Part shown: positions 1-12,958 of the stretch, piece after piece
How positions within the stretch are numbered: position 1 is the stretch's first letter
How the letters are laid out: the number at the start of each line of letters is the position of its first letter
Assembly: GCA_016839515.1 (NCBI GenBank)
Contig: JAEOUE010000089.1
Location: 1-12,958 of the forward strand
DNA length: 12,958 nt
Source: Candidatus Hodarchaeum mangrovi
GTDB taxonomy: Archaea > Asgardarchaeota > Heimdallarchaeia > Hodarchaeales > Hodarchaeaceae
Direction: 5' to 3'
Position numbers and translations under genes: made by a program
Notes under the pieces: model-generated
What the model saw: the letters and a program-made list of their open reading frames with translations, nothing else
What the model was told of the DNA's origin: nothing
The model's database searches: none

Positions 1-1143
1 CGCAGAGCTAAAGAAGCAGGTCAACTTGAAAATTTAATCAGTCAGCTTGATAAAAAGCAACCTGATTATATTAAGGATTTAAATTGGTTAATAAAACAAC
101 GTGACCAAGAAGCTTTCATAAGTATAGATAAATACCGAAAAAAAGTTTTAGGAGATAAATATAGCTCAACTTCATTTGATGACTCATTTGCTGTTACATT
201 AGAACTTTCATCCTGTCAATATTTCCCATTCTTAATAGTTGGAGCTAAACAGTCAGTTGAGAAAGAAGAGTTGATGCCTGGTCGAATCATCCGGGTTCGT
301 AGAATGAAAGAACAGGAAGAAGATGGAGATCTCCTTGCTATGGCAGCAGCTATGCAAATAATTGGGGCATCATACGTTGAAACTCTTGATACAAAAGGAA
401 CTGCACCTGGACCTGATGGTTTTCCCGTTAATATTCATCTCGGTGGTCCAGAAACGATTACGGGGTATTTTGGAGGGGTAGGCCAACCAAATAACTTTGC
501 CTTAAAATGGATAGAAGAGTTTTTATATTTCTACACAAAATATGGGGTAAAACAAGTCCTGAATATCAACCCAGGAACAGTCCTTCTAGGATATATGCTA
601 CATAAGCTTGGGATTGATAATGAGTTTAAAATCTCGGTTTTCATGGGTAATGATAATCCTTACAGCTGTTTATGGACCTTAATGACTGCAAAATTATTTG
701 CACGAAAAGATGGTACAAGTCCATTAATTGGCTTTAATCTTTCAAATGCTGTAAACAATACAACAATAGAACTTAGTGCTTATATTCGTAAAGAATTTGG
801 GCTCGAAAATATTGTACGACTCGAACATCATATCGTAGAAACCATCAAATCAATTGTTCGTCAACCATATGATCGAACAGAAGAATTAATAGAATTGGCA
901 AAACATTTAAAAAACATTTCAGCAAAACATGAGGGTGGTCCTGTGGAGATTGATAGTGTTCGGGAACATCCAACAGATATTCTTGATTATTTTAGAGCAA
1001 AAGATGAAATTATAAATGCAGGGCATTGGGAATATTTAAAGGTCAATTATCTTGATCGGCATGCTGCAGTAAACGAAACAGCAAAAAAATTAACTGAAAA
1101 TGGTATCAGTTTTGTTGCAGCTCAAAATTTACACCATCGATAA
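1..1143 (+). CDS. Uncharacterised soluble protein, probably an enzyme; 5'-truncated at the window edge
   Basis: Frame +1 is open from base 1 (RRAKEAGQLENLISQLDKKQPDYIKDLNWL...VTLELSSCQYFPFL...) with no stop before TAA at 1141-1143, so the TTG start at 271 in the ORF track is internal. It has Gly-rich, conserved-looking blocks (VETLDTKGT, NIHLGGPETITGYFGGVGQPN, FKISVFMGNDNP, LEHHIVET, SAKHEGG). I cannot name a family. Confidence 0.85.
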   Translation, partial: RRAKEAGQLENLISQLDKKQPDYIKDLNWLIKQRDQEAFISIDKYRKKVLGDKYSSTSFDDSFAVTLELSSCQYFPFLIVGAKQSVEKEELMPGRIIRVRRMKEQEEDGDLLAMAAAMQIIGASYVETLDTKGTAPGPDGFPVNIHLGGPETITGYFGGVGQPNNFALKWIEEFLYFYTKYGVKQVLNINPGTVLLGYMLHKLGIDNEFKISVFMGNDNPYSCLWTLMTAKLFARKDGTSPLIGFNLSNAVNNTTIELSAYIRKEFGLENIVRLEHHIVETIKSIVRQPYDRTEELIELAKHLKNISAKHEGGPVEIDSVREHPTDILDYFRAKDEIINAGHWEYLKVNYLDRHAAVNETAKKLTENGISFVAAQNLHHR

Positions 1144-1150
1144 CTACTAA

Positions 1151-2314
1151 GTGAGTATCATGATTGATTATAATGTCTTAAGAAAGACAGGTGCAGGGAT
1201 CTTCAAAGTCTTGGCTAAGGCTAAAGATCTAGAACAAGCAGGAAAAAAAATTCTTCATTTTGAAATTGGACAACCTTACGAAAATACGCCTGAACATATT
1301 AAACAAGCTGCAAAAGATGCTCTGGATGAAAACTTCACTGGATATGTGGAATCAAGTGGTATCCATGAGCTGAAAGAAGCAATTCGAGACGAAGTTCAAA
1401 ATACGCGTGGATTCAAGCCTTCTCTCAACCAAGTTTTAATACTTCCTGGTGCTAATTCTGGAGTATATTATGCCCTAAGAGCAGTAATAGATAATACAAA
1501 CCAAGAAATTATCTATCCAAACCCTGGATTTCCAACATATGGATCTGTAGTAAGTTATCTTAACGCAGGAGATAAAGCAGTACGAATAAAAGAAGAAAAT
1601 GAATTTCGTTTGAACCCAATTGATTTAGAAGACAAAATCACGATAAATACTAAAGTAATTATTCTAAATAGTCCACAAAATCCGACTGGATCAGTAATGA
1701 AAAAACAAGAAATTCAACGGATCGCGGAATTTGCTGAAGAACATAATTTCTATATCTTATCTGATGAAATTTACTCTAAAATGATATATGATGAAGAATT
1801 TTATTCCTGTTCTGTTCGGGATGAATGTAGAGAAAGAACTTTACTTCTTGATGGTTTTTCAAAATCCTATTCAATGACTGGATGGCGACTTGGGTGGATA
1901 ATCGCACCTGAAAAAATGATCGATCGAATGAACCTTCTTATTTCTATAGGTGTTTCTTGTACTTCCTCATTTATACAAAAAGCTGGTACAGCTGCTTTAA
2001 AAGGCCCACAAGATTCAATCCATGAGAATATGATAGAATATAGAAAACGTCGGGAGACAATTGTGAAAGGATTGAATGAAGTAAAAGGTTTCTCCTGTTT
2101 GACTCCTCAAGGAGCATTTTATGTGTTTCCAAATATCATTAAGACTGGAATGACCTCCCAAGAATGTGCTGATCATCTCTTAAATCACGGGATAGCCTGT
2201 TTACCTGGAACAGTATTTGGGTCAAATGGAGAAGGTTATTTACGTTTTTCATATGCAACATCAATTGAAACAATAAAAAAGGGAATTAAACTAATAAAAA
2301 ATGCTTTTGAATAA
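1151..2314 (+). CDS. PLP-dependent aminotransferase, class I/II (aspartate/aromatic aminotransferase-like)
   Basis: Motifs EIGQP, NPGFPTY, NSPQNPTG, SDEIY, PLP-lysine motif GFSKSYSMTGWRLG, PQGAFYVF and GEGYLRFSYA. Start is GTG 1151 or ATG 1160. Substrate cannot be determined from sequence. Confidence 0.93.
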   Translation: MSIMIDYNVLRKTGAGIFKVLAKAKDLEQAGKKILHFEIGQPYENTPEHIKQAAKDALDENFTGYVESSGIHELKEAIRDEVQNTRGFKPSLNQVLILPGANSGVYYALRAVIDNTNQEIIYPNPGFPTYGSVVSYLNAGDKAVRIKEENEFRLNPIDLEDKITINTKVIILNSPQNPTGSVMKKQEIQRIAEFAEEHNFYILSDEIYSKMIYDEEFYSCSVRDECRERTLLLDGFSKSYSMTGWRLGWIIAPEKMIDRMNLLISIGVSCTSSFIQKAGTAALKGPQDSIHENMIEYRKRRETIVKGLNEVKGFSCLTPQGAFYVFPNIIKTGMTSQECADHLLNHGIACLPGTVFGSNGEGYLRFSYATSIETIKKGIKLIKNAFE

Positions 2315-2334
2315 TTGTATCGGAAGTATTAACC

Positions 2335-3378
2335 ATGAAAGATATAACACGCATTTGTTTCATCGGATGGGGAGTAGTTGGTCAAGGTTTAACTGAAATT
2401 CTTCTTGAACAGAAAAGTGAATTGAAAAATAGATATGGTTTTCAATTTAAAGTTGTGGCTATTGCAGACAAAGTTAAGGGTTCTGTTTACGATGAAAATG
2501 GATTAGACCTTGCTAAACTTCTCAAAATAGTCAAGGAAACTGGAAAAATTAATGATTACCCAGAAGGAATAAAAGGCTGGGATAGTATTAAAACTATAAC
2601 GGAATCCAACGCTAATTTAGTAGTAGAAGCAAGCTGGACCGATATAAACACGGGAGAACCCGCTATAAGCCATGTTAAAGCTGCAATAAAATGTTACAAG
2701 CATGTAGTTATGACAAATAAGGGACCCATTGCTTTAGCAGCAAAGGATTTATTAAAAATGGCAGAGAAAAATGGTGTACAGCTTAAGTTTGAAGGGACGG
2801 TATTAAGTGGAACCCCTGCAATCAGCCTTGGTTTGAACAATTTAGCAGGTTCAAAGATTACAAAAATTATGGGAATCGTGAACGGAACAACCAATTATAT
2901 ACTTTCTGAAATGGAAAAAGGATTAGAATATGAAACCGCACTTAAGCAAGCTCAACAGCTTGGTTATGCTGAAGCTGATCCAACAGCAGATGTTGAAGGT
3001 TATGATGCACTTGGGAAAGTAGTGATATTATCTAATGTTATACTTGGGGCAAATATAACAAAGGATCAAGTTCCTTGTAAAGGAATTACAAAAATTACTT
3101 CAAAAGATATTGAGGAAGCCAAGAAAGAAGGAAAAAGATGGAAATTAATCGCTGGAGTAGAACTTAAGGATGATGGTTCAGTAGAGGCTTTTGTCAAACC
3201 TCAAAAGATCCCACTTGATCACCCTCTAGCATCCGTTGGAGGACCAATCAATGCATTGACATATACAACAAAATATCTAGGTGACATTACAATTGTAGGA
3301 CCTGGTGCTGGAAGAGAAGCAACTGGATATGCACTCTTAACCGATATCCTTGATATACACCGAAGTTTAACAAAGTAA
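2335..3378 (+). CDS. hom: Homoserine dehydrogenase (short form, no C-terminal ACT domain)
   Basis: Rossmann GWGVVG, HVVMTNKGPIA, FEGTVLSGTP, GIVNGTTNYIL, the signature AQQLGYAEADPTADVEGYDALGK, and C-terminal GPGAG. At 347 aa it ends right after the catalytic domain. Confidence 0.95.
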   Translation: MKDITRICFIGWGVVGQGLTEILLEQKSELKNRYGFQFKVVAIADKVKGSVYDENGLDLAKLLKIVKETGKINDYPEGIKGWDSIKTITESNANLVVEASWTDINTGEPAISHVKAAIKCYKHVVMTNKGPIALAAKDLLKMAEKNGVQLKFEGTVLSGTPAISLGLNNLAGSKITKIMGIVNGTTNYILSEMEKGLEYETALKQAQQLGYAEADPTADVEGYDALGKVVILSNVILGANITKDQVPCKGITKITSKDIEEAKKEGKRWKLIAGVELKDDGSVEAFVKPQKIPLDHPLASVGGPINALTYTTKYLGDITIVGPGAGREATGYALLTDILDIHRSLTK

Positions 3379-3412
3379 TATTCATGAAAAGAATTAATTG
3401 TGAAGTGTTATT

Positions 3413-5203
3413 ATGGGTTACATGGGAAAGTATTTAGATGTAGATTTATCCTCCGAAAAGTTGAACCAAGTTCCCACGGATCCTAAATTAACAGAACATT
3501 TTATTGGAGGGAAGGGATTGGGTGCAAAAATTCTATATGATTCTCTTGCAGCCAATGTTAATCCTTTGAGCTCAGAAAATATTCTCCTCTATATGACTGG
3601 TCCCTTGACTGGTACATCGGTTCAAACCTCTGGAAGGTGGTGCGTCGTGACCAAATCACCTCATACAGGAATTTTTTTAGATAGTCAGATAGGAGGTAAG
3701 TTTGGACATCGATTAAAACAAGCAGGTTATGATTATATCTTTGTTCATGGCAAATCAAATGAACCAGTTTATCTTGAAGTATCTTCTGAAAGAGTTGAAA
3801 TCCATTCGGCCCTTAAACTATGGGGAAAAGGTACCTATAAAACAGAAGAAATTCTAAAGAAGACCCATCCAGGGATGGAAGTTGTCTCAATTGGACCAGC
3901 TGGAGAAAATTTAGTAACATATGCCAGTATAATGACCGATAAAACCCATATGGCCGGCAGAGGGGGCGCAGGAGCAGTAATGGGATTCAAAAAACTTAAA
4001 GCTATCGTAACTGGTGGTACTAATGCGATAGAGACAAATAATACAGCCCAGTTCAAAGAATTAACTAGAAAATTTGCTAAGTCAGTTCGGGAAAATCTTG
4101 GTGTGAAACGAAGGCATGAAATTGGAACTGTAATGTGGGTGAAAATGGCTAATGAAGCTGGCTTTCTTCCAACACATAATTTTCAATCTGGAGTCTTCAA
4201 GGAAGCAGAAAATATCTCAGGGGAATATATGCGAGACAAATTTGTTGTAGGACATACTGCCTGCTATCGCTGTGCTATCGCCTGTGGTAAAACAACAAGA
4301 TTTAATGAAGGAAAATACAGTGGATTACAAGTTGATGGACCAGAATATGAAACATCAGCTCTATTAGGTGCAAGCTGCGGTATTGGTGACTTAGGAGCTA
4401 TTGCAAAAGGAAATGAAATCTGTGATGATCTAGGAATTGATACAATTACTGCTGGTAGTACGATTGCGTTTGCAATGGAATGTACAAACAAAAAAATCTT
4501 GAAACAGCAAGAAATTCCAAATCTCCATTTTGGTAACGCAGATGCGCAACACAAGCTTCTACATCAAATAGCATATCGAGAGGGAATGGGAGATTTATTT
4601 GCTAGTGGAACTTTAATTGCTGCTAAATCTTTAGGATTGAATTCCTCTGATTTTGCAGTGCAGGTAAAAGGTCTGGAACTGGCAGGAGTTGAACCCCGTG
4701 GATCTTTTGGAATGGCATTAGCTTATAGTACTTCCGATCGTGGTGGTTGTCATCAAAGATGTTGGACTCCAGGAGCAGAGCTTTCTGGTTCTCTTAAACG
4801 ATTTTCTTTCGATGGAGTAGCGAAATTTGTCAAAGAATCTCAAGATGAACGAGCTGTATGTTTTTCTCTTGTTCTTTGTGATTTTCTTCCATTTGAGATC
4901 CCTGAAATGGTCGAGATGCTTAATATGGCAACAGGGTTTAATTATACTCCTCAATCATATCTTCAGACAGGTGAACGAATTTGGAATCAAACAAGGCTAT
5001 TTAATGTCCGTGAAGGAATGACAGCCAAAGATGATATATTACCAAAGCGATTCTATACTGAGAAGGCTCCCGAAGGAGATCCAGAGGGACAATTGATAGA
5101 TAAAAATGCCTTTGAAAATGCAAAACAGGAGTACTACTCACTTAGAAATTGGGATTCACAAGGAGTACCTTCAGCAGCGAAGTTAAAAGAATTAAAACTT
5201 TAA
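3413..5203 (+). CDS. aor: Tungsten-dependent aldehyde:ferredoxin oxidoreductase (AOR family)
   Basis: Motifs FIGGKGLG, TGPLTG, KSPHTG, IGPAGEN, AGRGGAGAVMG, [4Fe-4S] cysteines CYRCAIAC plus SLVLC, GPEYET, CDDLGIDTI, VKGLELAGVEPR, DRGGCH, GERIWN, DDILPKRF and YYSLRNWD. Length is 596 aa. Subfamily and substrate are unresolved. Confidence 0.95.
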   Translation: MGYMGKYLDVDLSSEKLNQVPTDPKLTEHFIGGKGLGAKILYDSLAANVNPLSSENILLYMTGPLTGTSVQTSGRWCVVTKSPHTGIFLDSQIGGKFGHRLKQAGYDYIFVHGKSNEPVYLEVSSERVEIHSALKLWGKGTYKTEEILKKTHPGMEVVSIGPAGENLVTYASIMTDKTHMAGRGGAGAVMGFKKLKAIVTGGTNAIETNNTAQFKELTRKFAKSVRENLGVKRRHEIGTVMWVKMANEAGFLPTHNFQSGVFKEAENISGEYMRDKFVVGHTACYRCAIACGKTTRFNEGKYSGLQVDGPEYETSALLGASCGIGDLGAIAKGNEICDDLGIDTITAGSTIAFAMECTNKKILKQQEIPNLHFGNADAQHKLLHQIAYREGMGDLFASGTLIAAKSLGLNSSDFAVQVKGLELAGVEPRGSFGMALAYSTSDRGGCHQRCWTPGAELSGSLKRFSFDGVAKFVKESQDERAVCFSLVLCDFLPFEIPEMVEMLNMATGFNYTPQSYLQTGERIWNQTRLFNVREGMTAKDDILPKRFYTEKAPEGDPEGQLIDKNAFENAKQEYYSLRNWDSQGVPSAAKLKELKL

Positions 5204-5218
5204 ATTATTTTGATATGA

Positions 5219-6634
5219 TTAGCTTTTAAATTTCCATATTGTCCCTTCAGGTTTATCCTCAAGCTGTATTCCAATATCAATTAACTTTGAACGAATTTCA
5301 TCTGCAAGTTTAAATTGTTTTATATTCCTAAGGTCGTTTCGTAATACTATTATCAGACTAATTAATGAATGAAGTGGTATAACTCCCTGAACATCAGTTA
5401 TATGTAAATCTATCCCTAAAATTCCCATCAATGTAACAATTAGATCGCTTGCTTCAGCAAGAAGATGCCTTTCATTATCAAATGCATTATTTACTGATTT
5501 TACGAATTGCATAATAGCTTGAATAGCTCCAACTGTATTAAGATCATCATCCATAGCTTGGATGAAGTCAGTTGTAACTCGTGTGATGCTTTCACGGAGA
5601 ACTTTTTCTTTTCCACCATTAGCTTGTTTTAATGCTGCTAATGAGGTTCGAATACGATCCAAAAGGACTTGGTTTTGGCTAATTGCATCATTATTGAAAT
5701 CTACACTTTTTCTATAATGAGAATTAACAAGGAATAACCGAATAACCATAGGGTCAAATTCTTTAAAGAGATCTCGTACCAAAATAAAATTTCCCTTAGA
5801 TTTTCCCATTCTTTCCCCATTTACAGTCAAGAAAGCAGCGTGAATCCAATAATTAACGAATTTTTGGCCTGTTCGAGCTTCACTTTGAGCAATTTCATTA
5901 GGATGATGAAGATGTAAATGATCAATCCCTCCAGCATGAATATCTAAAGTGGTTCCTAAGTATTTCTGACTCATTACCGAGCATTCAAGGTGCCAACCTG
6001 GATAACCCATCCCCCATGGAGAGGGCCATTTCATCAAATGCCCCTCTGGAGCTTTTATCCATAAAGCGAAATCCCGTGGGTCTTTTTTCTCAGGATTGAC
6101 TGCTATTCGTGCTCCTACTGTCTCCTCAGAGTAAGTTGTTGGACTAAGTTCACCATAATTAGAAAATTTAGTAACATCAAAATAGATGGTTCCATTCACT
6201 TCATACGCATATTCTTTAGCAAGAAGATCCTTTACAAATTCAATCATCTCTGGTATTTCCCCAGTTGCACGGGGGTAAATATCTGCTCGCTGTATGTTTA
6301 GTTTATCCATATCTTCATAGAATTTTCGGATTTGTTTCTCAACTAGAACCATTGGTTGAATATCTTTAGCTATTGCGGTTTTAATTATTTTATCTTCACC
6401 AGTATCAGCATCATCAGTCAAATGGCCTACATCAGTAAAATTCTGAACCCAAAATACATCATATCCTCGCCAACGGAGATATCTAACTAAGACATCCCAA
6501 TAAGAGTACGTTCGGGCATTCCCAATGTGAGCATCTTCATAAACTGTTTGACCACATGAATAAAAACGCACTTTCTTCTTTTCAATAGGGATAAATTCCT
6601 CTTTTTTCCGTGTAAGTGAATTATAAAGTTGCAT
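5219..6634 (-). CDS. cysS: Cysteine--tRNA ligase (class I)
   Basis: LYNSLTRKKEEF start, CGQTVY, HIGH-type HIGNAR, DFALW, WPSPWGMGYPGWHLECS, DIHAGG, HHPNEIAQ, KMSKS-like RMGKSKGN, SHYR, AMDDDLNT and the anticodon-domain ADEIRSKL...LEDKPEGTIW. Confidence 0.97.
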   Translation of the reverse strand: MQLYNSLTRKKEEFIPIEKKKVRFYSCGQTVYEDAHIGNARTYSYWDVLVRYLRWRGYDVFWVQNFTDVGHLTDDADTGEDKIIKTAIAKDIQPMVLVEKQIRKFYEDMDKLNIQRADIYPRATGEIPEMIEFVKDLLAKEYAYEVNGTIYFDVTKFSNYGELSPTTYSEETVGARIAVNPEKKDPRDFALWIKAPEGHLMKWPSPWGMGYPGWHLECSVMSQKYLGTTLDIHAGGIDHLHLHHPNEIAQSEARTGQKFVNYWIHAAFLTVNGERMGKSKGNFILVRDLFKEFDPMVIRLFLVNSHYRKSVDFNNDAISQNQVLLDRIRTSLAALKQANGGKEKVLRESITRVTTDFIQAMDDDLNTVGAIQAIMQFVKSVNNAFDNERHLLAEASDLIVTLMGILGIDLHITDVQGVIPLHSLISLIIVLRNDLRNIKQFKLADEIRSKLIDIGIQLEDKPEGTIWKFKS

Positions 6635-6915
6635 ATAAATTAAGACTTCCGTTAAGAGTCAATTATTTGATACTTTCATCATTTTTTAAATTTCTACATT
6701 GCCTCTAATAATGTTTTCAATCGAGGTAAGTTACTCTCACTCCAAAGGATATCAAATAGAATAAGTTATATTACAATAATTTTTGTTATGAAAAATATAC
6801 TGATGTTATTTATTCCCAAATAAATTATTCACAGGTTCTCAAAGATCAAGAATTGTCTTTGTTTCAATAAAGTAAGTTAACTTTCCATTTCCGACATGAT
6901 CGATAGGTAAATAAT

Positions 6916-7170
6916 TCATTCACTGTCTTGAGGACCAGATTGAAAGAACTTATTTTGGACTTCTTGAAGTGCTTGAATCAAATCATTAAGGTCTTTTGGT
7001 CCTACTTGTGCAGACATTGCACTCCCGAATTTTGTGTTGTATTGTCGTCCATTAATAAGAGAGAGATCAAAATTTTTATATTGCCCTTTCTGGGTAACCG
7101 AAACAACGACTTTACTATCAAATCGTCCATTGATCCATTTTTTGAATAAAGAATTTGATTTTTCAGCCAT
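6916..7170 (-). CDS. Small hypothetical protein (84 aa), possibly PC4/PUR-like single-stranded nucleic-acid-binding fold
   Basis: ATG start with an RBS-like GGTG at 7177-7180 (- strand) and ordinary amino-acid composition. Beta-strand-like segments (KVVVSVTQKG, YKNFDLSLI) are followed by an amphipathic helix (VGPKDLNDLIQALQEV). The fold assignment is inference. Confidence 0.7.
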   Translation of the reverse strand: MAEKSNSLFKKWINGRFDSKVVVSVTQKGQYKNFDLSLINGRQYNTKFGSAMSAQVGPKDLNDLIQALQEVQNKFFQSGPQDSE

Positions 7171-7264
7171 AAATTACACCAAAACAGTCTATTTTATTTG
7201 ATGGAGACAAGATAATCAGCTTTTTATATTTTTAGCGGTTTAATGATGAAAAAAAAATTTACTC

Positions 7265-7318
7265 TATTCTTAGAATAATCTCATAAAAAAATAGTAATTA
7301 ATTTAAATTCTCGAGAAT
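7265..7318. promoter_or_regulatory. Two related palindromes (TATTCT-T-AGAATA, ATTCT-CG-AGAAT) in the divergent promoter region
   Basis: 7265-7277 is TATTCTTAGAATA and 7307-7318 is ATTCTCGAGAAT, a perfect 12-bp palindrome. Both lie in the AT-rich spacer between the 84-aa gene and the GTPase. Confidence 0.3.
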
Positions 7319-7414
7319 AGGAATACAAAAATTCCTTGTAAACTTTCAAGGAAAAATTATTCTCAATTACAATATTATTCTTATTCTTTAAATTTTTATA
7401 AAGGGGTTTAGGTT

Positions 7415-8047
7415 ATGTCAAGCTCAAATCTTTGGATAAAGATGTTGTTACTAGGTGATGGAGGAGTAGGAAAAAGTGCTTTTCGCCGAGCTTGGTTAGG
7501 AGAGACCTTTAAATCACAATATTTAATGACTTTAGGGGCAGATTTTGCATCAAAACAAGTTATATTAAATTATGAACCTACAGAGACAATATATAACATC
7601 AGATTTCAAATTTGGGATTTAGCAGGTCAACCACGCTTTAAAGATGTTGTAGATCTCTTTTATCGTGGAGCTGCAGGTGCTTTATGTTTTTTTGATATTA
7701 CAAATCAAGGTTCATTTAATGGCCTTCATAATTGGATAAATTCATTCTGGACATTAAATAGTCAAGGAAAACGACCAATTATTATTGTTGGTGCAAAGTG
7801 TGACCTAAAAAATGACCCAGAATTTAAAAGTCAAGTAACTACTGAACAAGGAATAGAATATGCGAAGAATTTAACGCGGATCATAAAAGAAGAAGCTGAT
7901 TTTACCGTCCATTATATCGAAACTTCAGCAAAAGAAGAAATTAATGTAGAAAAAACCTTTCACTTACTCGCTACAGAAATTATTTCTAGTGTTCATCTTA
8001 GAGAACAAATGAGACTCTCAGCATTAAGAAGATTAGACAATAATTAA
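7415..8047 (+). CDS. Ras-superfamily small GTPase, Rab-like (Asgard-type eukaryotic signature protein)
   Basis: G1 GDGGVGKS, switch I/G2 YLMTLGADF, G3 QIWDLAGQPRF, Rab-like FYRGAAGALCFFDIT, deviant G4 GAKCD, G5 ETSAK. The C-terminus (...ALRRLDNN) has no Cys prenylation motif. Confidence 0.93.
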   Translation: MSSSNLWIKMLLLGDGGVGKSAFRRAWLGETFKSQYLMTLGADFASKQVILNYEPTETIYNIRFQIWDLAGQPRFKDVVDLFYRGAAGALCFFDITNQGSFNGLHNWINSFWTLNSQGKRPIIIVGAKCDLKNDPEFKSQVTTEQGIEYAKNLTRIIKEEADFTVHYIETSAKEEINVEKTFHLLATEIISSVHLREQMRLSALRRLDNN

Positions 8048-8119
8048 TATATTTTCTAAAAAAATCTATTAATGCTATTAGTGCTTTTAATATATGGTAT
8101 TTTTCCGTTTTTAGTTTAA

Positions 8120-9358
8120 TTACTCATCTATAATTGCTTCAATAATTTTGATTGTCTGCCAGACCTCATTATAGGTATTATAAAGAGCTATTGGTGCTAT
8201 CCTTATTATATTAGGTTTCCGAAAATCTGTGATTACATTTCGTTTCATAAGTTCTTGATTAATTTTATCTGCTTTCTCGTGTTCCAAAGCAACATGACCA
8301 GATCTGTGTTGAGGAACTCGGGGGGTTCCAATAGTAAAACCCTTCTTAACCAAAATTTCATCAGCTAAATAAATCAAATAATCAGTTAATTTTATTGATT
8401 TTTCTCTAATTTTCTCTATTCCCACCTCATGAAACATTTTCAATGAGCCTTCTAAACTAGCGGAGCAGAGAATGTTTGAACTGGAGATCTGCCAACCACC
8501 AGCATGTTTTTCATGCTCAAAATTTAATAACATGTCAAATTGTTTGCTTTTAACGTAACCAAACCAACCTGATAAACCAGGTTCCATATCAAAGTGTTTT
8601 TCATGGATAAATAGAAAAGCTGTTCCACCAGGACCACTATTTAAATACTTATAACTACACCAGATAGCAAAGTCAACTTCCCATTCATGTAATTTGTGAG
8701 GAACGACTCCTACAGAATGAGAACAATCAAATCCAATTGGAATTCCTCTTGCATGAGCTGCTTGGGTTAATTTTTCAATATCTAATAACTGACCACTTCG
8801 ATATAATACAGACGGTAATAATACAAGAGCAATATCAGAGTTCATATAATCGATGATTTGTTGTTCATCCAGCATTCTTCCGTCTAGACTAGGGACGAAA
8901 ACAAGGTGTTTGTCTGGAGAAAGGCCTTTAAGTTTAATTTGACTTTCTAAAGCATAAATATCTGTAGGAAAATTTAATTCATCAGCTAGGATCTTATTTC
9001 TTTCTCCAGAAGGTTGAAAAAATGCACTGACTAATGTATGAAGATTCAGAGTTGTTGTTCCAGTAGCTATAACTTCTCTTGCTTTTGCTCCCACTAAAGG
9101 GGCCATCAATTCTCCGAAATATTCCCCGTAATGCCACCAATCTGGGTTACCATAAAACCAACCATTTATACCTAGATTTTTCCATTCAGAGATTGTTTTT
9201 AGTAAGGATTCTTCAGCGGGTTTAGATAATAAACCTAATGAATTACCATCTAAATAAATAGTATCTTTTGGAATGTAAAATAACTTACGATAACTTTTAA
9301 GGGGATCTGAATTATCTAATTTTAGGGCTGTCTCATGATTAACTGTATAAGTATCCAT
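8120..9358 (-). CDS. kynU: Kynureninase (PLP-dependent)
   Basis: IYLDGNSLGL, LVGAK.REV, TTLNLH, NFPTDIY, VLYRSGQL, FDCSHSVG, PLP-Lys motif WCSYKYLNSGPG, GWFG, GWQISS and DFRKPNIIRIAPIALYN. RBS AAGGAG at 9370-9375 (- strand). Confidence 0.95.
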   Translation of the reverse strand: MDTYTVNHETALKLDNSDPLKSYRKLFYIPKDTIYLDGNSLGLLSKPAEESLLKTISEWKNLGINGWFYGNPDWWHYGEYFGELMAPLVGAKAREVIATGTTTLNLHTLVSAFFQPSGERNKILADELNFPTDIYALESQIKLKGLSPDKHLVFVPSLDGRMLDEQQIIDYMNSDIALVLLPSVLYRSGQLLDIEKLTQAAHARGIPIGFDCSHSVGVVPHKLHEWEVDFAIWCSYKYLNSGPGGTAFLFIHEKHFDMEPGLSGWFGYVKSKQFDMLLNFEHEKHAGGWQISSSNILCSASLEGSLKMFHEVGIEKIREKSIKLTDYLIYLADEILVKKGFTIGTPRVPQHRSGHVALEHEKADKINQELMKRNVITDFRKPNIIRIAPIALYNTYNEVWQTIKIIEAIIDE

Positions 9359-9440
9359 TCTTGAAGTTACTCCTTTAGCAGATGTGAAAAAATCGAATAT
9401 AAAAAATCCTTTACTATCTATTACAAAATGGTTTTTCTTT

Positions 9441-10610
9441 TTATTTTTCTTGTTTCAATCTTGTCTTTATAGAACCATCACGAATCCATTTATGAGCACG
9501 GAACACTTCTTTACCATATCTATCTGCAAGTTTATCAAGCGATCTTGTTAAATCCTTTAAATCCATCGATTCTATCAATTCAAATGGCCCCAGTGGATTA
9601 TGGTAATGAAGTTTCATACCTGTATTAATGTCCTGAATAGAAGTGATTTTTTCCTCAAAAACCTTCACAGCTTCATTAACTTGAACTTTCATTAAAAGCA
9701 TCAAATCAAAGTCAGCTGGATTGGATAAATCAATATTTGGTCTTTTTCCATCAGAACCCCATTTATATATTCCTTCTCCAGTCTTTCTGCCTAATTTTTT
9801 TTCCTGTACCAACTTTTTTAGCCTTGGGACTAGGTTATAATCTTCAGAAAGATGCTCAGCTAAATAATTTGAACTATCAAAAATAATATCAAGTCCCAGA
9901 TAATCCATAAGTTCAAAGGGACCCATAATCATTCCTTGATTTAATGCTGCTGCATCAATTTGAGTGGGTAAATACTCATCGCGGTCGAAAATTAATTGCA
10001 TCAATAACATAGAGGGAGCCATAATTCGATTACAAATGAATCCAGGACTATCCTTTGAGATAATGTATTCCTTTTTCGTTTTTTTCACAAAATCGATGGC
10101 AAATTCCATCGTTTTTTCAGATGTTTTTTTTCCTCTAACTATTTCAATAACTTTTGCAAGTGGAGGTGGAGTTGGAAAATGCAGTCCTATTATTTTGTCA
10201 GGACGTTTAGTGACTTCGCCAATCTTTGAAATGCTCATGGTTGATGTATTTGATGCAAGGATTGTATTTTGAGGAGAAAATCTATCTAACTTTTTAAAAA
10301 TCTCTTTTTTTAGATCTAATTTTTCGGGAACTGCTTCAATACAAAGGTCAGTCGCTTTGGCGGCAGCTTCAAGATCAATGGTGAGTGTGAGTTTTTCCAT
10401 ACACCTCCGATATTCATTCTTATTGATGGAAGACTTTTCCACAAATTTATTCAATGACCAATCAATTAAAGATTTAGCTTCTTCCAATATTTCATCGTTA
10501 AGATCACATAGGTAAACAGAATATCCAGACAGAAGTGCTACTTCTGCAATACCATGTCCCATATGACCTGCTCCTATAACTGCAATTTTCTTTGGTTTTT
10601 CTCCATTCAA
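9441..10610 (-). CDS. 3-hydroxyacyl-CoA dehydrogenase with duplicated C-terminal (3HCDH_C) domain, no hydratase domain
   Basis: VIGAGHMGHGIA Rossmann motif, IEAVPEKLDLKKEIF, LASNTST, catalytic His...Glu (GLHFPTPPPLAKVIEIV), DSPGFICNRI, MGPFELMDYLGLD, LGRKTGEGIY, and a second repeat VNEA...DINTGM...PLGPFEL. TTG start with an AGGTTGA RBS-like element upstream. Confidence 0.92.
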   Translation of the reverse strand: MNGEKPKKIAVIGAGHMGHGIAEVALLSGYSVYLCDLNDEILEEAKSLIDWSLNKFVEKSSINKNEYRRCMEKLTLTIDLEAAAKATDLCIEAVPEKLDLKKEIFKKLDRFSPQNTILASNTSTMSISKIGEVTKRPDKIIGLHFPTPPPLAKVIEIVRGKKTSEKTMEFAIDFVKKTKKEYIISKDSPGFICNRIMAPSMLLMQLIFDRDEYLPTQIDAAALNQGMIMGPFELMDYLGLDIIFDSSNYLAEHLSEDYNLVPRLKKLVQEKKLGRKTGEGIYKWGSDGKRPNIDLSNPADFDLMLLMKVQVNEAVKVFEEKITSIQDINTGMKLHYHNPLGPFELIESMDLKDLTRSLDKLADRYGKEVFRAHKWIRDGSIKTRLKQEK

Positions 10611-10965
10611 ATCAAACTCAACCTTTTTAGTAATTAGTGGATAAAATAAAGTACTGGAAAATAGGGAAAGAGGGTAACTAATCCCATATTAGCTTTCAAA
10701 TTAATAGATTTTTTGATCAAAATTGAGTTGATCTCATTTATACTTTTTCTTCTATCTCCTGTTATTAAAAAAGGATAAAAAGAACCCGAACTTAACTTAA
10801 AGTACACTATTGCACTAATGTGCTTAAAGAAATACACGCAGAAAATTTGTTAAGATATTTATCTATAAAAAAGTGTGGGAATTATGAGGACAACATCTAT
10901 GAAAATTATCAAACTTTAATTTTTTAGAAATCATCATCCCTTAGATTTCATTTTGTGAATTATTT

Positions 10966-10978
10966 GGAAATATATATA
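10966..10978 (+). promoter_or_regulatory. Putative archaeal BRE/TATA box for the 11001/11034 gene
   Basis: Purine-rich GGAAA (10966-10970) directly followed by TATATATA (10971-10978). With typical archaeal spacing the transcription start would fall near 11000. Confidence 0.5.
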
Positions 10979-11006
10979 TGAACATTCGAACTTTGTTCAT
11001 ATGAAC
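10976..11006. promoter_or_regulatory. Operator-like nested inverted/direct repeat (ATATGAAC / GTTCATAT)
   Basis: ATATGAACA (10976-10984) and TGTTCATAT (10994-11002) form a perfect 9-bp inverted repeat with a 9-bp spacer. GTTCATATGAAC (10995-11006) is a perfect 12-bp palindrome. ATATGAAC occurs directly repeated at 10976 and 10999. Confidence 0.55.
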
Positions 11007-12770
11007 GTTACTTTTTTTGGTGGAAATTTTGTTATGTCTAACTCTGACCACGACTGGTATTCATGGAAATCTGATCGCCGAAAAACCGAAATTGTCAAAC
11101 GTCGTATAGCTAAACATTCTTTTGCCCAAATTGCTCGAGATCTCCTAGGTGATGAGAAAAAGAAGCCAACCATCTGGTCATGGGCAAAACGTAACCTTAG
11201 TGAATCTGAAATGTATCCTACTATGCGTTCTCTCCCTCAGGATCCCTATAAAAATTTTTCTGAGGTTGAACAATGGGTTATGTATGATATTCTCTCTTCT
11301 ATGTTTCCTCGTTTGGACGCTATCTCCCAACACATCATATTCGAGGTACAAAAAATCTTAAATGAACAACAAAAGAGCTTTTCTCTTACTGCTGGATTTC
11401 TTGATGAATTAGAACAGCGGGTTATTGAAGCAATACGTCGAAACACAGCAGTTCTTACTACTAGAGTATCCACACCCATTTCTGTTGTACCATCTGTTCC
11501 ACCCTCAGCTATTCCAAGAGCTCCTTCAATTGGTGCTACTTCTCCTCCACCACCGCCCCCTGGTTCATTACTTAGTCAAACTGTTGTTTCTCCTGGTACT
11601 ATGAGTGAATTACGTACTGATTTTGAAGAGATGTCTTTAGATGAAATTAATTCTCTTCCTCCTGATTTCCTTGAAGCTTTATCTCCTCTAGATAGAAACC
11701 GACTTCAAAATCGTGTCAAAGAACTCCGAATGATTGAAAAAATGACTCCAGATGAACGAGAAGCTTATCTCTTAAAGAAAAAACAAGAAAAAGAACGTAC
11801 AGAAGCCCAAGAGGGCCTTGGTTCTTCATTATCTGCGATGTTAGATGATTCTGATTCTCTATTTGCACGAATGCGTCGTGCTGCTGACGATTCACAGGTT
11901 ACGGGTACTGGAACTTTTGGTAAATTCACTACTGAGTATATATATTTTTATTGTTTTTCCTGTGGCAAGATGAATAGGTCTGAAGAGGAATTTATTGACG
12001 GCTGTGAATATTGTGGGGCTGAGGCTGAACTACTTGTGCTAGATGATGAAAAATCTAACTATTCTTACTGGGAATGTCTATCATCAAAAGTTAAAGAGCC
12101 TGTAGATCATTCTTATACTCGTGGTAACCAAATAGCTATCCGTTCTCGATGGAAAACTCCTATTGATAAAGAAAATGATCTACATGGATGTGATAAAACC
12201 CAAATCAGAGAGATTACAAGTTCTGTTGAAATAAAAGCTGACCCTGACAAACAATTCTCTCATTATTTAACGCTTTTAAGACTTTATACTCAGTTACCGC
12301 TTCAAGGGGATCTAAAAACCTATCTATTTGATTTAAATAATGATATCCAAAAAATAGCTGACATTGACTCAAAAGAAATGGGGATAATCCAGACTTTAGC
12401 TATTCTTGAACAACTTCGTTTTTTAATTAACTGGATTAAATCACGAGATTTTTTGGATAATCACCCTACTCGTGAAGATATCATCAAGCAGTTCGAAAAT
12501 CTATTAAAAGACATGGATCAAATGATTAACCCAGAATCTCCCCAGGATCTTCATAAATCTAGTGATATCGGTCAAATTAGTGGTAAAACTGAACAAATTC
12601 TTAATAGATTTACCTCTATACTAATTTTACTTGAATCTGAACTTCTACTTCCTACAAAATGGAAGTGTGGTGAATGTAATACTATTTTTGAAGTAAGGGA
12701 TCGTTTTAGTATTCCTGACAGATGTGCTTCCTGTGGAAAAATAATTGCTCGCTTAGATCAAGTTAAATAA
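11001..12770 (+). CDS. Uncharacterised multidomain protein: putative N-terminal HTH, Pro-rich/polyproline linker, helical repeats/charged helix, two CxxC-CxxC zinc ribbons
   Basis: 589-aa ORF. The real start may be ATG 11034, which has GGTGGA at 11019-11024 upstream; the alternative is a leaderless start at 11001. HTH-like segment 11076-11198 (HSFAQIARDLLGDEKKKPTIWSWAKR), PPPPPP at 11544-11561, CFSC-x13-CEYC at 11952-12014, CGEC-x15-CASC at 12666-12734. Confidence 0.88.
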   Translation: MNVTFFGGNFVMSNSDHDWYSWKSDRRKTEIVKRRIAKHSFAQIARDLLGDEKKKPTIWSWAKRNLSESEMYPTMRSLPQDPYKNFSEVEQWVMYDILSSMFPRLDAISQHIIFEVQKILNEQQKSFSLTAGFLDELEQRVIEAIRRNTAVLTTRVSTPISVVPSVPPSAIPRAPSIGATSPPPPPPGSLLSQTVVSPGTMSELRTDFEEMSLDEINSLPPDFLEALSPLDRNRLQNRVKELRMIEKMTPDEREAYLLKKKQEKERTEAQEGLGSSLSAMLDDSDSLFARMRRAADDSQVTGTGTFGKFTTEYIYFYCFSCGKMNRSEEEFIDGCEYCGAEAELLVLDDEKSNYSYWECLSSKVKEPVDHSYTRGNQIAIRSRWKTPIDKENDLHGCDKTQIREITSSVEIKADPDKQFSHYLTLLRLYTQLPLQGDLKTYLFDLNNDIQKIADIDSKEMGIIQTLAILEQLRFLINWIKSRDFLDNHPTREDIIKQFENLLKDMDQMINPESPQDLHKSSDIGQISGKTEQILNRFTSILILLESELLLPTKWKCGECNTIFEVRDRFSIPDRCASCGKIIARLDQVK

Positions 12771-12823
12771 TTTAAGGAAAATCAACAATAGATGTACATC
12801 AGAATTAGTCTTTTTACCCAAAT

Positions 12824-12958
12824 TTAGGAGAGAATTTTCATATTTTCATTTGAATTTTTCAGTAGATAATTCCATATTGAGCTCCAAAAACTTGTTAAAT
12901 ATATTAGAAGTAAAACAGCTCCTAATACAAGGTGTATGGTACTGATTGCTTCTTCTCC
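12824..12958 (-). CDS. C-terminal fragment of a membrane protein (possibly EamA/DMT transporter), running in from the right edge
   Basis: The - strand frame from 12958 reads GEEAISTIHLVLGAVLLLIYLTSFWSSIWNYLLKNSNENMKILS* with the stop at 12824-12826. It contains one hydrophobic helix, and GE-x8-LGA-x-LL resembles the last helix of EamA/DMT proteins. It is not in the ORF track. Confidence 0.55.
   Translation of the reverse strand, partial: GEEAISTIHLVLGAVLLLIYLTSFWSSIWNYLLKNSNENMKILS

Follow-up and report, generated by a model that had tools for sequence, protein, structure and literature searches.

What does a protein do that joins a probable DNA-binding head to an invariant polyproline tract and zinc ribbons, and how does it relate to the conserved DNA element in front of its own gene? 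The question is raised by a stretch of 12,958 nucleotides (nt) from the archaeon Candidatus Hodarchaeum mangrovi (GCA_016839515.1, contig JAEOUE010000089.1, positions 1 to 12,958 of the forward strand), referred to below as the window. An earlier note, made from the letters alone, had placed an open reading frame (ORF) at 11001-12770, and the frame is indeed there, uninterrupted, on the plus strand and 589 codons long (589 amino acids, aa). Its product is a conserved, uncharacterised protein with the probable head and the other parts just named. In current placements the Hodarchaeales, the order concerned, are the archaea most closely related to eukaryotes, and cultured strains have recently become available (preprint 10.1101/2025.02.26.640444).

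The answer that we favour, tentatively and with a confidence a little short of an even chance, is that the protein is a self-regulating, oligomeric DNA-binding scaffold whose polyproline run and zinc-ribbon core would serve as a docking platform for a partner. The DNA element and the conservation of the protein's parts are described first, followed by the explanations that compete with this one.

A four-half-site DNA element is conserved upstream of the gene

Four half-sites of the form ATGAAC/GTTCAT (H1 to H4; the coordinates of all features are collected in Table 1) make up an operator-like element ahead of the gene. The same layout, ATGAAC followed after 9-11 nt by GTTCAT-ATGAAC-GTTCAT, was found in 9/9 upstream regions of orthologues. 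A weight matrix derived from 8 of these sites was applied to 13 further loci that had no part in its construction, with 3000 random 260-nt windows of the protein's own genome as the null (99th percentile 11.8, maximum 20.0). Two orthologues were left out of the scoring, L016, which has no upstream DNA on its contig, and another with only 47 nt (compared genomes, contigs and loci carry G, C and L labels, G000 being the genome of the window). Scores of 26.8 were obtained at five loci, 14.9 at two, and 26.4, 23.4, 18.5, 18.1, 14.4 and 9.4 at one locus each. Twelve of the 13 test loci lie above the 99th percentile of the null and seven above its maximum, some of the test regions being up to 481 nt long and slightly favoured over the 260-nt null for that reason. 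The weaker scores all come from one sub-clade, where the fourth half-site has been lost.

Genome-wide searches suggest that the element is essentially private to this gene. The top matrix score in the whole 4.0-Mb genome, 22.6, is that of the site at the gene, and the next matches (20.2, 19.7, 19.4 and lower) lie mostly inside genes. The 12-bp palindrome with at most one mismatch occurs 10 times per strand in this genome, equal to the reversed control, and element counts across this and five other genomes are no higher than those of reversed-pattern controls. In each of the five other genomes the site ahead of the orthologue is among the best 18-mer matches by mismatch count; it is outdone by another site in G064 and equalled by others in G071. 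A second site common to two related genomes falls where two convergent genes end, between their 3' ends.

The usual signature of autoregulation is a site that occurs in the promoter region of an HTH (helix-turn-helix) gene and nowhere else. The present site is nearly so restricted, and the gene behind it itself encodes an HTH-like head, so autoregulation would be the simplest reading.

The second-best intergenic match of the matrix (19.7) is a separate observation: it lies at G000:C258:12990-13030, comprises several GTTCAT/GTGAAC half-sites, and falls in an 800-nt gap upstream of a gene for a 458-aa membrane protein.

The coding sequence probably starts downstream of the element

The ATG at 11001 with which the listed ORF begins is the ATG of the third half-site, and thus lies inside the conserved upstream element. 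Most aligned homologues start, with MSN... or MT..., at the position of M12 (nt 11034). Since the ATG at 11001 is part of the element, most homologues begin at M12, and a GGTGG motif stands 10 nt before the downstream ATG, the annotated start is doubtful and the true coding start is probably 11034. The correction is relevant to anyone expressing the protein. Residue numbers below are those of the listed ORF.

Modular architecture of the protein

An AlphaFold2 model of the full-length protein, built on 24 homologues and with a mean predicted local distance difference test score (pLDDT) of 73, reproduced the modular order of domains that the earlier note had read from the letters (Table 1). The HTH-like segment that it had marked at 11076-11198 corresponds to aa 26-66 and falls within the modelled three-helix head, where the most conserved residues, I44, L48, G50, K55, I58, W61, R64 and N65, are located in helices 2 and 3. 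The long helical region that follows is a putative coiled coil through which the protein might oligomerise. Beyond the disordered linker, the helical core carries the motifs DFEEM and LPPDFLEAL, a hairpin (RVKEL...MTPEEREAYL.KK) and an LF.RM..A helix, and leads into the first CxxC...CxxC zinc ribbon (C318, C321, C335 and C338), all four cysteines of which are invariant in 24/24 aligned homologues. Residues 311-589, the C-terminal 279, gave a compact and confident model when folded alone (pLDDT 91, predicted template modelling score 0.84). The layout appears to exceed chance, because P182-P185 and the cysteines of the first ribbon are invariant in all 24 homologues and proline runs are rare in the genome.

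Table 1. Positions in the window of the upstream DNA features and of the parts of the encoded protein.
Feature	Position	Strand	Remarks
TATA-like ATATATATAT	10970..10979	+	Abuts first half-site; read in sequence, function putative
Operator-like element, four half-sites	10978..11012		ATGAAC/GTTCAT; conserved upstream of orthologues
H1 ATGAAC	10978-10983		Followed by 11-nt spacer
H2 GTTCAT	10995-11000		
H3 ATGAAC	11001-11006		
H4 GTTACT	11007-11012		Degenerate here; GTTCAT in most orthologues
Shine-Dalgarno-like GGTGG	11019..11023	+	10 nt before ATG 11034; read in sequence, function putative
Probable true coding sequence	11034..12770	+	578 aa from M12 of listed ORF; homologue starts
Three-helix HTH-like head	11049..11198	+	aa 17-66; helices 24-36, 41-49, 52-65; AlphaFold2 pLDDT 82-88
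Long helical region	11262..11465	+	aa 88-155; helices 88-101, 103-155, pLDDT 56-69; invariant motif TAGFLD.LE.R
Disordered Pro/Ser-rich linker	11466..11609	+	aa 156-203; pLDDT <50 across about aa 152-203
PPPPPP run	11544-11561	+	aa 182-187, within Pro/Ser linker
Conserved helical core	11610..11891	+	aa 204-297; common to short paralogue
Pfam DUF7130 match	11850..12041	+	aa 284-347; helix, G.GTFG.F loop, first zinc ribbon
Beta-rich sub-domain	12033..12230	+	aa 345-410; invariant C359, C397, SRWK motif; long form only
Four-helix bundle	12246..12650	+	aa 416-550
C-terminal zinc ribbon	12654..12764	+	C556, C559, C575, C578; missing from some orthologues

Selection on the polyproline run

P183 is invariant in 26/26 aligned sequences when the distant forms are included, and P182 and P184-186 are present in at least 90% of them. 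The proline codons of the run vary synonymously among 8 orthologues, so it is the protein sequence and not the DNA that is conserved there; the run thus appears to be under selection at the protein level. Runs of at least five prolines occur in 5 of the 3351 ORFs of at least 100 aa in this AT-rich genome, two of the five being the gene studied here and its paralogue. We take the run to be a possible docking site. The other three such ORFs, on contigs C34, C106 and C149 of the same genome, are possible further members of a polyproline-recognition network.

A family of Hodarchaeales-type genomes with a paralogue that lacks the HTH

The earlier note had called the protein an orphan, which is not the case: a word-indexed search returned 59 proteins at E<=0.001 including the query, that is 58 relatives, mostly full length and 39-89% identical, and part of the sequence belongs to a Pfam family (below). 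The relatives come from sources named Hodarchaeales, Hodarchaeota, Heimdallarchaeota, Promethearchaeota or Thorarchaeota and are called 'hypothetical protein', with automatic JGI names on a few ('rubrerythrin' on 6 and 'rRNA maturation endonuclease Nob1', or 'Nob1', on 3). Whole-genome searches found the protein in 21/21 other genomes of its genus, in 1/2 genomes of a sister family within the order and in 0/376 other genomes sampled from the phylum; the long form is present as one copy per genome in 22/22 genomes of the genus. A search with a profile of the core gave the same distribution plus one marginal match (E 4.3e-4), and a scan of the genomes of 185,579 species gave 19 loci, all from records labelled Hodarchaeota, Heimdallarchaeota, Hermodarchaeota or Promethearchaeota. 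The supposition that the protein is Asgard-specific is thus borne out by the genome and species scans, and its range is narrower still, the Hodarchaeales-type genomes. When 1.84 billion cluster representatives were searched exhaustively with HMMER, 31 proteins were found, comprising orthologues and a set of proteins of 340-410 aa that match only query residues from about 130 to 340.

Orthologues of the long form are 56-70% identical, as compared with 73-81% for the neighbouring asparaginyl-tRNA synthetase (AsnRS), a level that suggests reasonable overall constraint on the family. All 26 aligned long and short sequences have in common the polyproline run, a DF..M motif, the hairpin (consensus '..R.KEL...E.MTPEERE.YL.KK'), an 'LF.KM..A..S...G.GT.G' segment and the zinc ribbon, and at the N-terminus family members carry either the HTH or a different CxxC...CxxC ribbon. 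One copy each of the long and the short form is found in the genome of the window, and likewise in 19/22 genomes of the genus. The short paralogue in the former (356 aa; G000:C120, locus L006 1468-2538) is 37% identical to the long protein over residues 171-341 (E 7.7e-29). It shares the polyproline run, DF..M motif, helical hairpin, LF.KM segment and zinc-ribbon core, carries a CxxC...CxxC ribbon at the N-terminus, where the long form has the HTH, and is without the C-terminal bundle.

From this alignment the conserved unit is the polyproline run, the helical hairpin and the zinc-ribbon core, to which the HTH is an accessory. Homologues without the HTH and polyproline elements were what the earlier note had set as a refutation of its reading, and that condition is answered in part; the HTH turns out not to belong to the conserved core, as the paralogue keeps the module with an N-terminal ribbon instead. 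Homologues lacking the HTH therefore exist, and among the sequences collected none lacking the polyproline run was seen.

In 9/9 loci the short paralogue is directly preceded on the same strand by a gene of 203-247 aa (L006 841-2538 for the pair, G000:C120), in which no Pfam family was found. The two loci whose upstream DNA was read share a ACCGCAAGGT-TAA motif ahead of this two-gene unit, and the ATGAAC element was not seen there.

Relation to curated families and solved folds

The one Pfam family that covers part of the protein is DUF7130 (PF23458), at 40.2 bits against a cut-off of 35 (E 3.1e-10), with residues 284-347 aligned to positions 22-85 of the 89 in the profile. The same stretch scored 30.3 bits, under the cut-off, in a six-frame search of the genome, and the family was matched by 21/24 homologues at E<=0.1. 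DUF7130 thus has the same helix, glycine-rich loop and CxxC...CxxC ribbon; it spans only 64 of the 589 residues and carries no functional annotation, and the HTH, coiled coil, polyproline run, hairpin, bundle and second ribbon lie outside it. Our literature search found no mention of DUF7130.

For the head, two HTH models were examined. Pfam HTH_38 (PF13936, the IS30-type HTH; cut-off 27 bits) gave no match on the protein, and in a search of its genome matched three other places and not the window; sub-threshold matches occur in 1/24 homologues (E 0.034) and in 3/19 distant relatives (E 0.0011-0.0035). Pfam Myb_DNA-binding (PF00249; cut-off 24.4 bits) likewise stayed below its cut-off and missed the window in the genome search, and was matched, below threshold, by a single distant relative (P0085, E 0.0052). 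The aromatic spacing W19-F41-W61 is reminiscent of what we take to be the pattern of Myb repeats.

No NCBIfam family was found on the protein. Foldseek searches of the Protein Data Bank (PDB) with the whole or the C-terminal model returned nothing at E<=0.001, the search having effectively covered residues 416-550, and gave only generic four-helix-bundle and rubredoxin-knuckle matches. Against viral models nothing was found at E<=0.001, and a phage rubredoxin-domain protein aligns with the C-terminal ribbon region over 42 columns. That ribbon also has sub-threshold Pfam matches to Zn_ribbon_8 and HypA. No credible relative came out of profile searches of PDB sequences, nor any usable match out of the ESM Atlas. 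A profile of the core matched the coiled-coil hairpin of Bacillus uS2 weakly (E 9e-5), which is probably a compositional likeness between two charged helical hairpins. The claim that the architecture falls outside any named family agrees with these Pfam, NCBIfam, Foldseek and PDB-profile searches, none of which brought up a named family or solved fold that spans the protein.

A proposed self-regulating scaffold and the explanations that compete with it

In the mechanism that we tentatively propose, the N-terminal three-helix HTH would bind the four ATGAAC/GTTCAT half-sites before its own gene, the long helix after it would hold the protein as a dimer or tetramer, and binding would control the gene's own expression. 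The rest of the protein, namely the invariant polyproline run, the helical-hairpin and zinc-ribbon core, and the C-terminal bundle with the second ribbon, would form an interaction platform that brings a partner to the DNA-bound protein. The DNA binding that the earlier note had proposed for the head is supported indirectly, by the conserved palindromic element before the gene, and finds no counterpart at threshold among HTH families.

Several observations weigh against this mechanism. That this protein is the one that binds the element is an inference; no curated HTH family reached threshold on the protein in Pfam or NCBIfam, HTH_38 and Myb among them; and no wider regulon emerged from the matrix search of its own genome or from the searches of five others. 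The distance between the element and the coding start is variable (60-133 nt from H2 to a conserved Trp codon), one genome has the complete element in inverted orientation with respect to the gene, and in one sub-clade it is degenerate, the lowest matrix score there falling below the 99th percentile of the null. Because the distance to the Trp codon varies, binding might either repress or activate. The orthologues are kin, so that the conservation counts are not independent of one another. Finally, the paralogue keeps the core with no HTH at all, so DNA binding as such is not the central function of the family; because of this HTH-less paralogue, that function is the activity of the core, whatever it may be.

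An unlikely alternative, yet one to be taken seriously, is that the element belongs to another regulator, and that the HTH has other targets or no sequence-specific binding, the protein being simply a regulated scaffold. Membership of the head in an HTH family could not be demonstrated, and a candidate for the other regulator can be named. Elsewhere in the genome, a TetR-family gene and a membrane-protein gene divergent from it flank two copies, one exact and one near, of a palindrome much like the element, AATGA(A/G)CGTTCATT; the copies stand 39 bp apart (L027 1440-1520; G000:C32:6886-6936). The copy at the TetR-family gene is the only exact copy of the 12-bp palindrome in this genome, and the exact palindrome recurs in 3/11 loci orthologous to the TetR locus. 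The pair, which resembles the element studied here, probably serves as the TetR operator; since it precedes a TetR-family gene, another factor of similar specificity exists. A TetR-type binder at the element is nevertheless unlikely from the distribution of the two, because the TetR orthologue was found in only 11/22 genomes of the genus and the element is strong in G064, G065, G067, G068, G073 and G077, where that orthologue was not found, an argument limited by the completeness of those genomes (70-94%). The near-confinement of the site to the promoter region of an HTH gene, the usual autoregulation signature noted above, also speaks for the gene's own product.

The earlier note had suggested that the profilin/actin or ubiquitin systems might supply the protein's partners. 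It is rather improbable, in our estimate, that the protein is a cytoskeleton adaptor, in which the polyproline run docks profilin or profilin-actin and the conserved helices next to it contact actin, so that actin assembly would be recruited to DNA or another anchor much as by VASP, formin FH1 or WASP; such a role is compatible with DNA binding. The polyproline run is invariant and selected at the protein level, as set out above, and actin is encoded in the genome. Polyproline ligands are, however, also recognised by SH3, WW, GYF and UEV domains, and no cytoskeletal gene is a conserved neighbour. Neither WH2, FH2, EVH1 nor any other actin-regulator family was present among the weak Pfam matches of the core and the whole protein, including a search to E 1 on 14 core sequences that gave no WH2, FH2 or EVH1, although WH2 motifs are short and easily missed. 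The Pfam profilin model had no match in this genome, nor in any control genome, so it is uninformative. In published work, the binding of a Heimdallarchaeota profilin to a VASP polyproline peptide is reported to be weak (Kd 0.3-3.3 mM), with the native proline-rich ligands left unidentified (PMC8410842); actin filament-like structures are described in cultured Hodarchaeales (preprint 10.1101/2025.02.26.640444).

We give still less credence to a combination of the two ideas, a DNA-anchored polyproline adaptor whose HTH would sit on a centromere-like or promoter element while the polyproline run and core recruit profilin-actin or another proline-recognition machine. If this were true, the protein would be a native ligand of Asgard profilin and a link between chromosome and actin cytoskeleton, and the HTH-less paralogue would do the same from a different anchor.

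It is also improbable that the target is RNA or the ribosome instead of DNA, and that the protein is a zinc-ribbon factor of translation or RNA processing. Two zinc ribbons, the 'Nob1' label on three relatives, the uS2 match of the core profile and tRNA synthetase genes nearby point in this direction. Against them, the uS2 match is limited to the charged hairpin and to a few Firmicutes sequences, and is probably compositional as said, and the neighbouring genes are on other strands, AsnRS being near the orthologue in only 5/9 loci. As for Nob1 itself, neither its PIN domain, which should precede the zinc ribbon, nor any other Nob1 domain was found with Pfam or NCBIfam, and the name is an automatic label.

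Two further explanations are barely credible. A rubrerythrin-like redox protein, with a four-helix di-iron bundle followed by a rubredoxin-like ribbon, is named automatically on six relatives and appears in weak Foldseek rows (E 0.24-0.86), but no Pfam rubrerythrin match was found and the invariant or nearly invariant columns of residues 416-550 hold no His and one Glu (E545), so that the paired E..H metal ligands presumably typical of rubrerythrin are absent from the bundle by that measure; the label is unfounded and the explanation close to refuted. A remnant of a mobile element or virus, such as an IS30-like transposase HTH or a terminase small subunit, could draw on the sub-threshold HTH_38 matches of three distant relatives, but the long form is a single copy in every genome of the genus with partly conserved neighbours, no catalytic domain was found with Pfam, tblastn against 50,697 phage records gave no match, and only one weak PHROG of unknown function was matched.

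Neighbouring genes

The genes next to the orthologues are housekeeping genes on other strands, with no operon, and only such housekeeping genes recur between loci. Within the window, 7415-8047 (+) encodes a small GTPase of the Ras/Roc family (Pfam Ras, 135.7 bits), and a Ras-family GTPase paralogue lies within a few genes of the orthologue in 7/9 loci; these genomes have many GTPase paralogues, so the proximity may be coincidental. An 84-aa ORF at 6916-7170 (-), with no Pfam or NCBIfam family, has a clear homologue in another genome (L024 7495-7752), where that homologue lies immediately ahead of the orthologue and is encoded on the opposite strand. At 8120-9358 (-) the window carries a kynureninase (TIGR01814, 389.7 bits; cut-off 246), which acts in tryptophan catabolism and is less familiar from archaea than from bacteria and eukaryotes. 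An ORF of 380 codons at 1-1143 (+), open at its 5' end, has no Pfam or NCBIfam family.

Significance and comparison with known systems

Our literature search found no description of the family, the architecture or the element, and nothing that joins Asgard archaea with proline-rich sequences, zinc ribbons and helix-turn-helix; supplementary catalogues of protein clusters, which lie outside that search, could list the family. Every genome examined in the genus has the family, which carries one of the very few polyproline runs of the proteome and has no described counterpart. The protein is a concrete candidate for the native proline-rich ligand of Asgard profilin, a gap pointed out in the profilin report (PMC8410842). 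The conserved operator-like element, for its part, offers a defined protein-DNA pair that is immediately testable in vitro, independently of the profilin idea.

Among known systems, the disordered linker with its proline run recalls the eukaryotic actin regulators Ena/VASP, formins (FH1) and the WASP family, which likewise have a conserved run of at least six prolines in a disordered linker, short helices and an oligomerisation helix. In contrast to these proteins, no EVH1, FH2, WH2 or acidic/central motifs were detected in the protein studied here, and its zinc ribbons and HTH are foreign to those families. Autoregulated HTH regulators, of which the TetR-type gene on C32 is an example, likewise have a small helical head, a probable oligomerisation helix and a palindrome at their own gene. 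By comparison, the present protein is far larger, lies outside the curated HTH families, and searches revealed in it no ligand-binding domain from any known regulator family. Taken together, the pairing of an HTH protein with a palindrome at the gene that encodes it is a known arrangement; the novelty lies in the effector part, which joins a disordered polyproline linker to a new helical and zinc-ribbon core and to a ribbon-bearing bundle, and for which we found no described counterpart.

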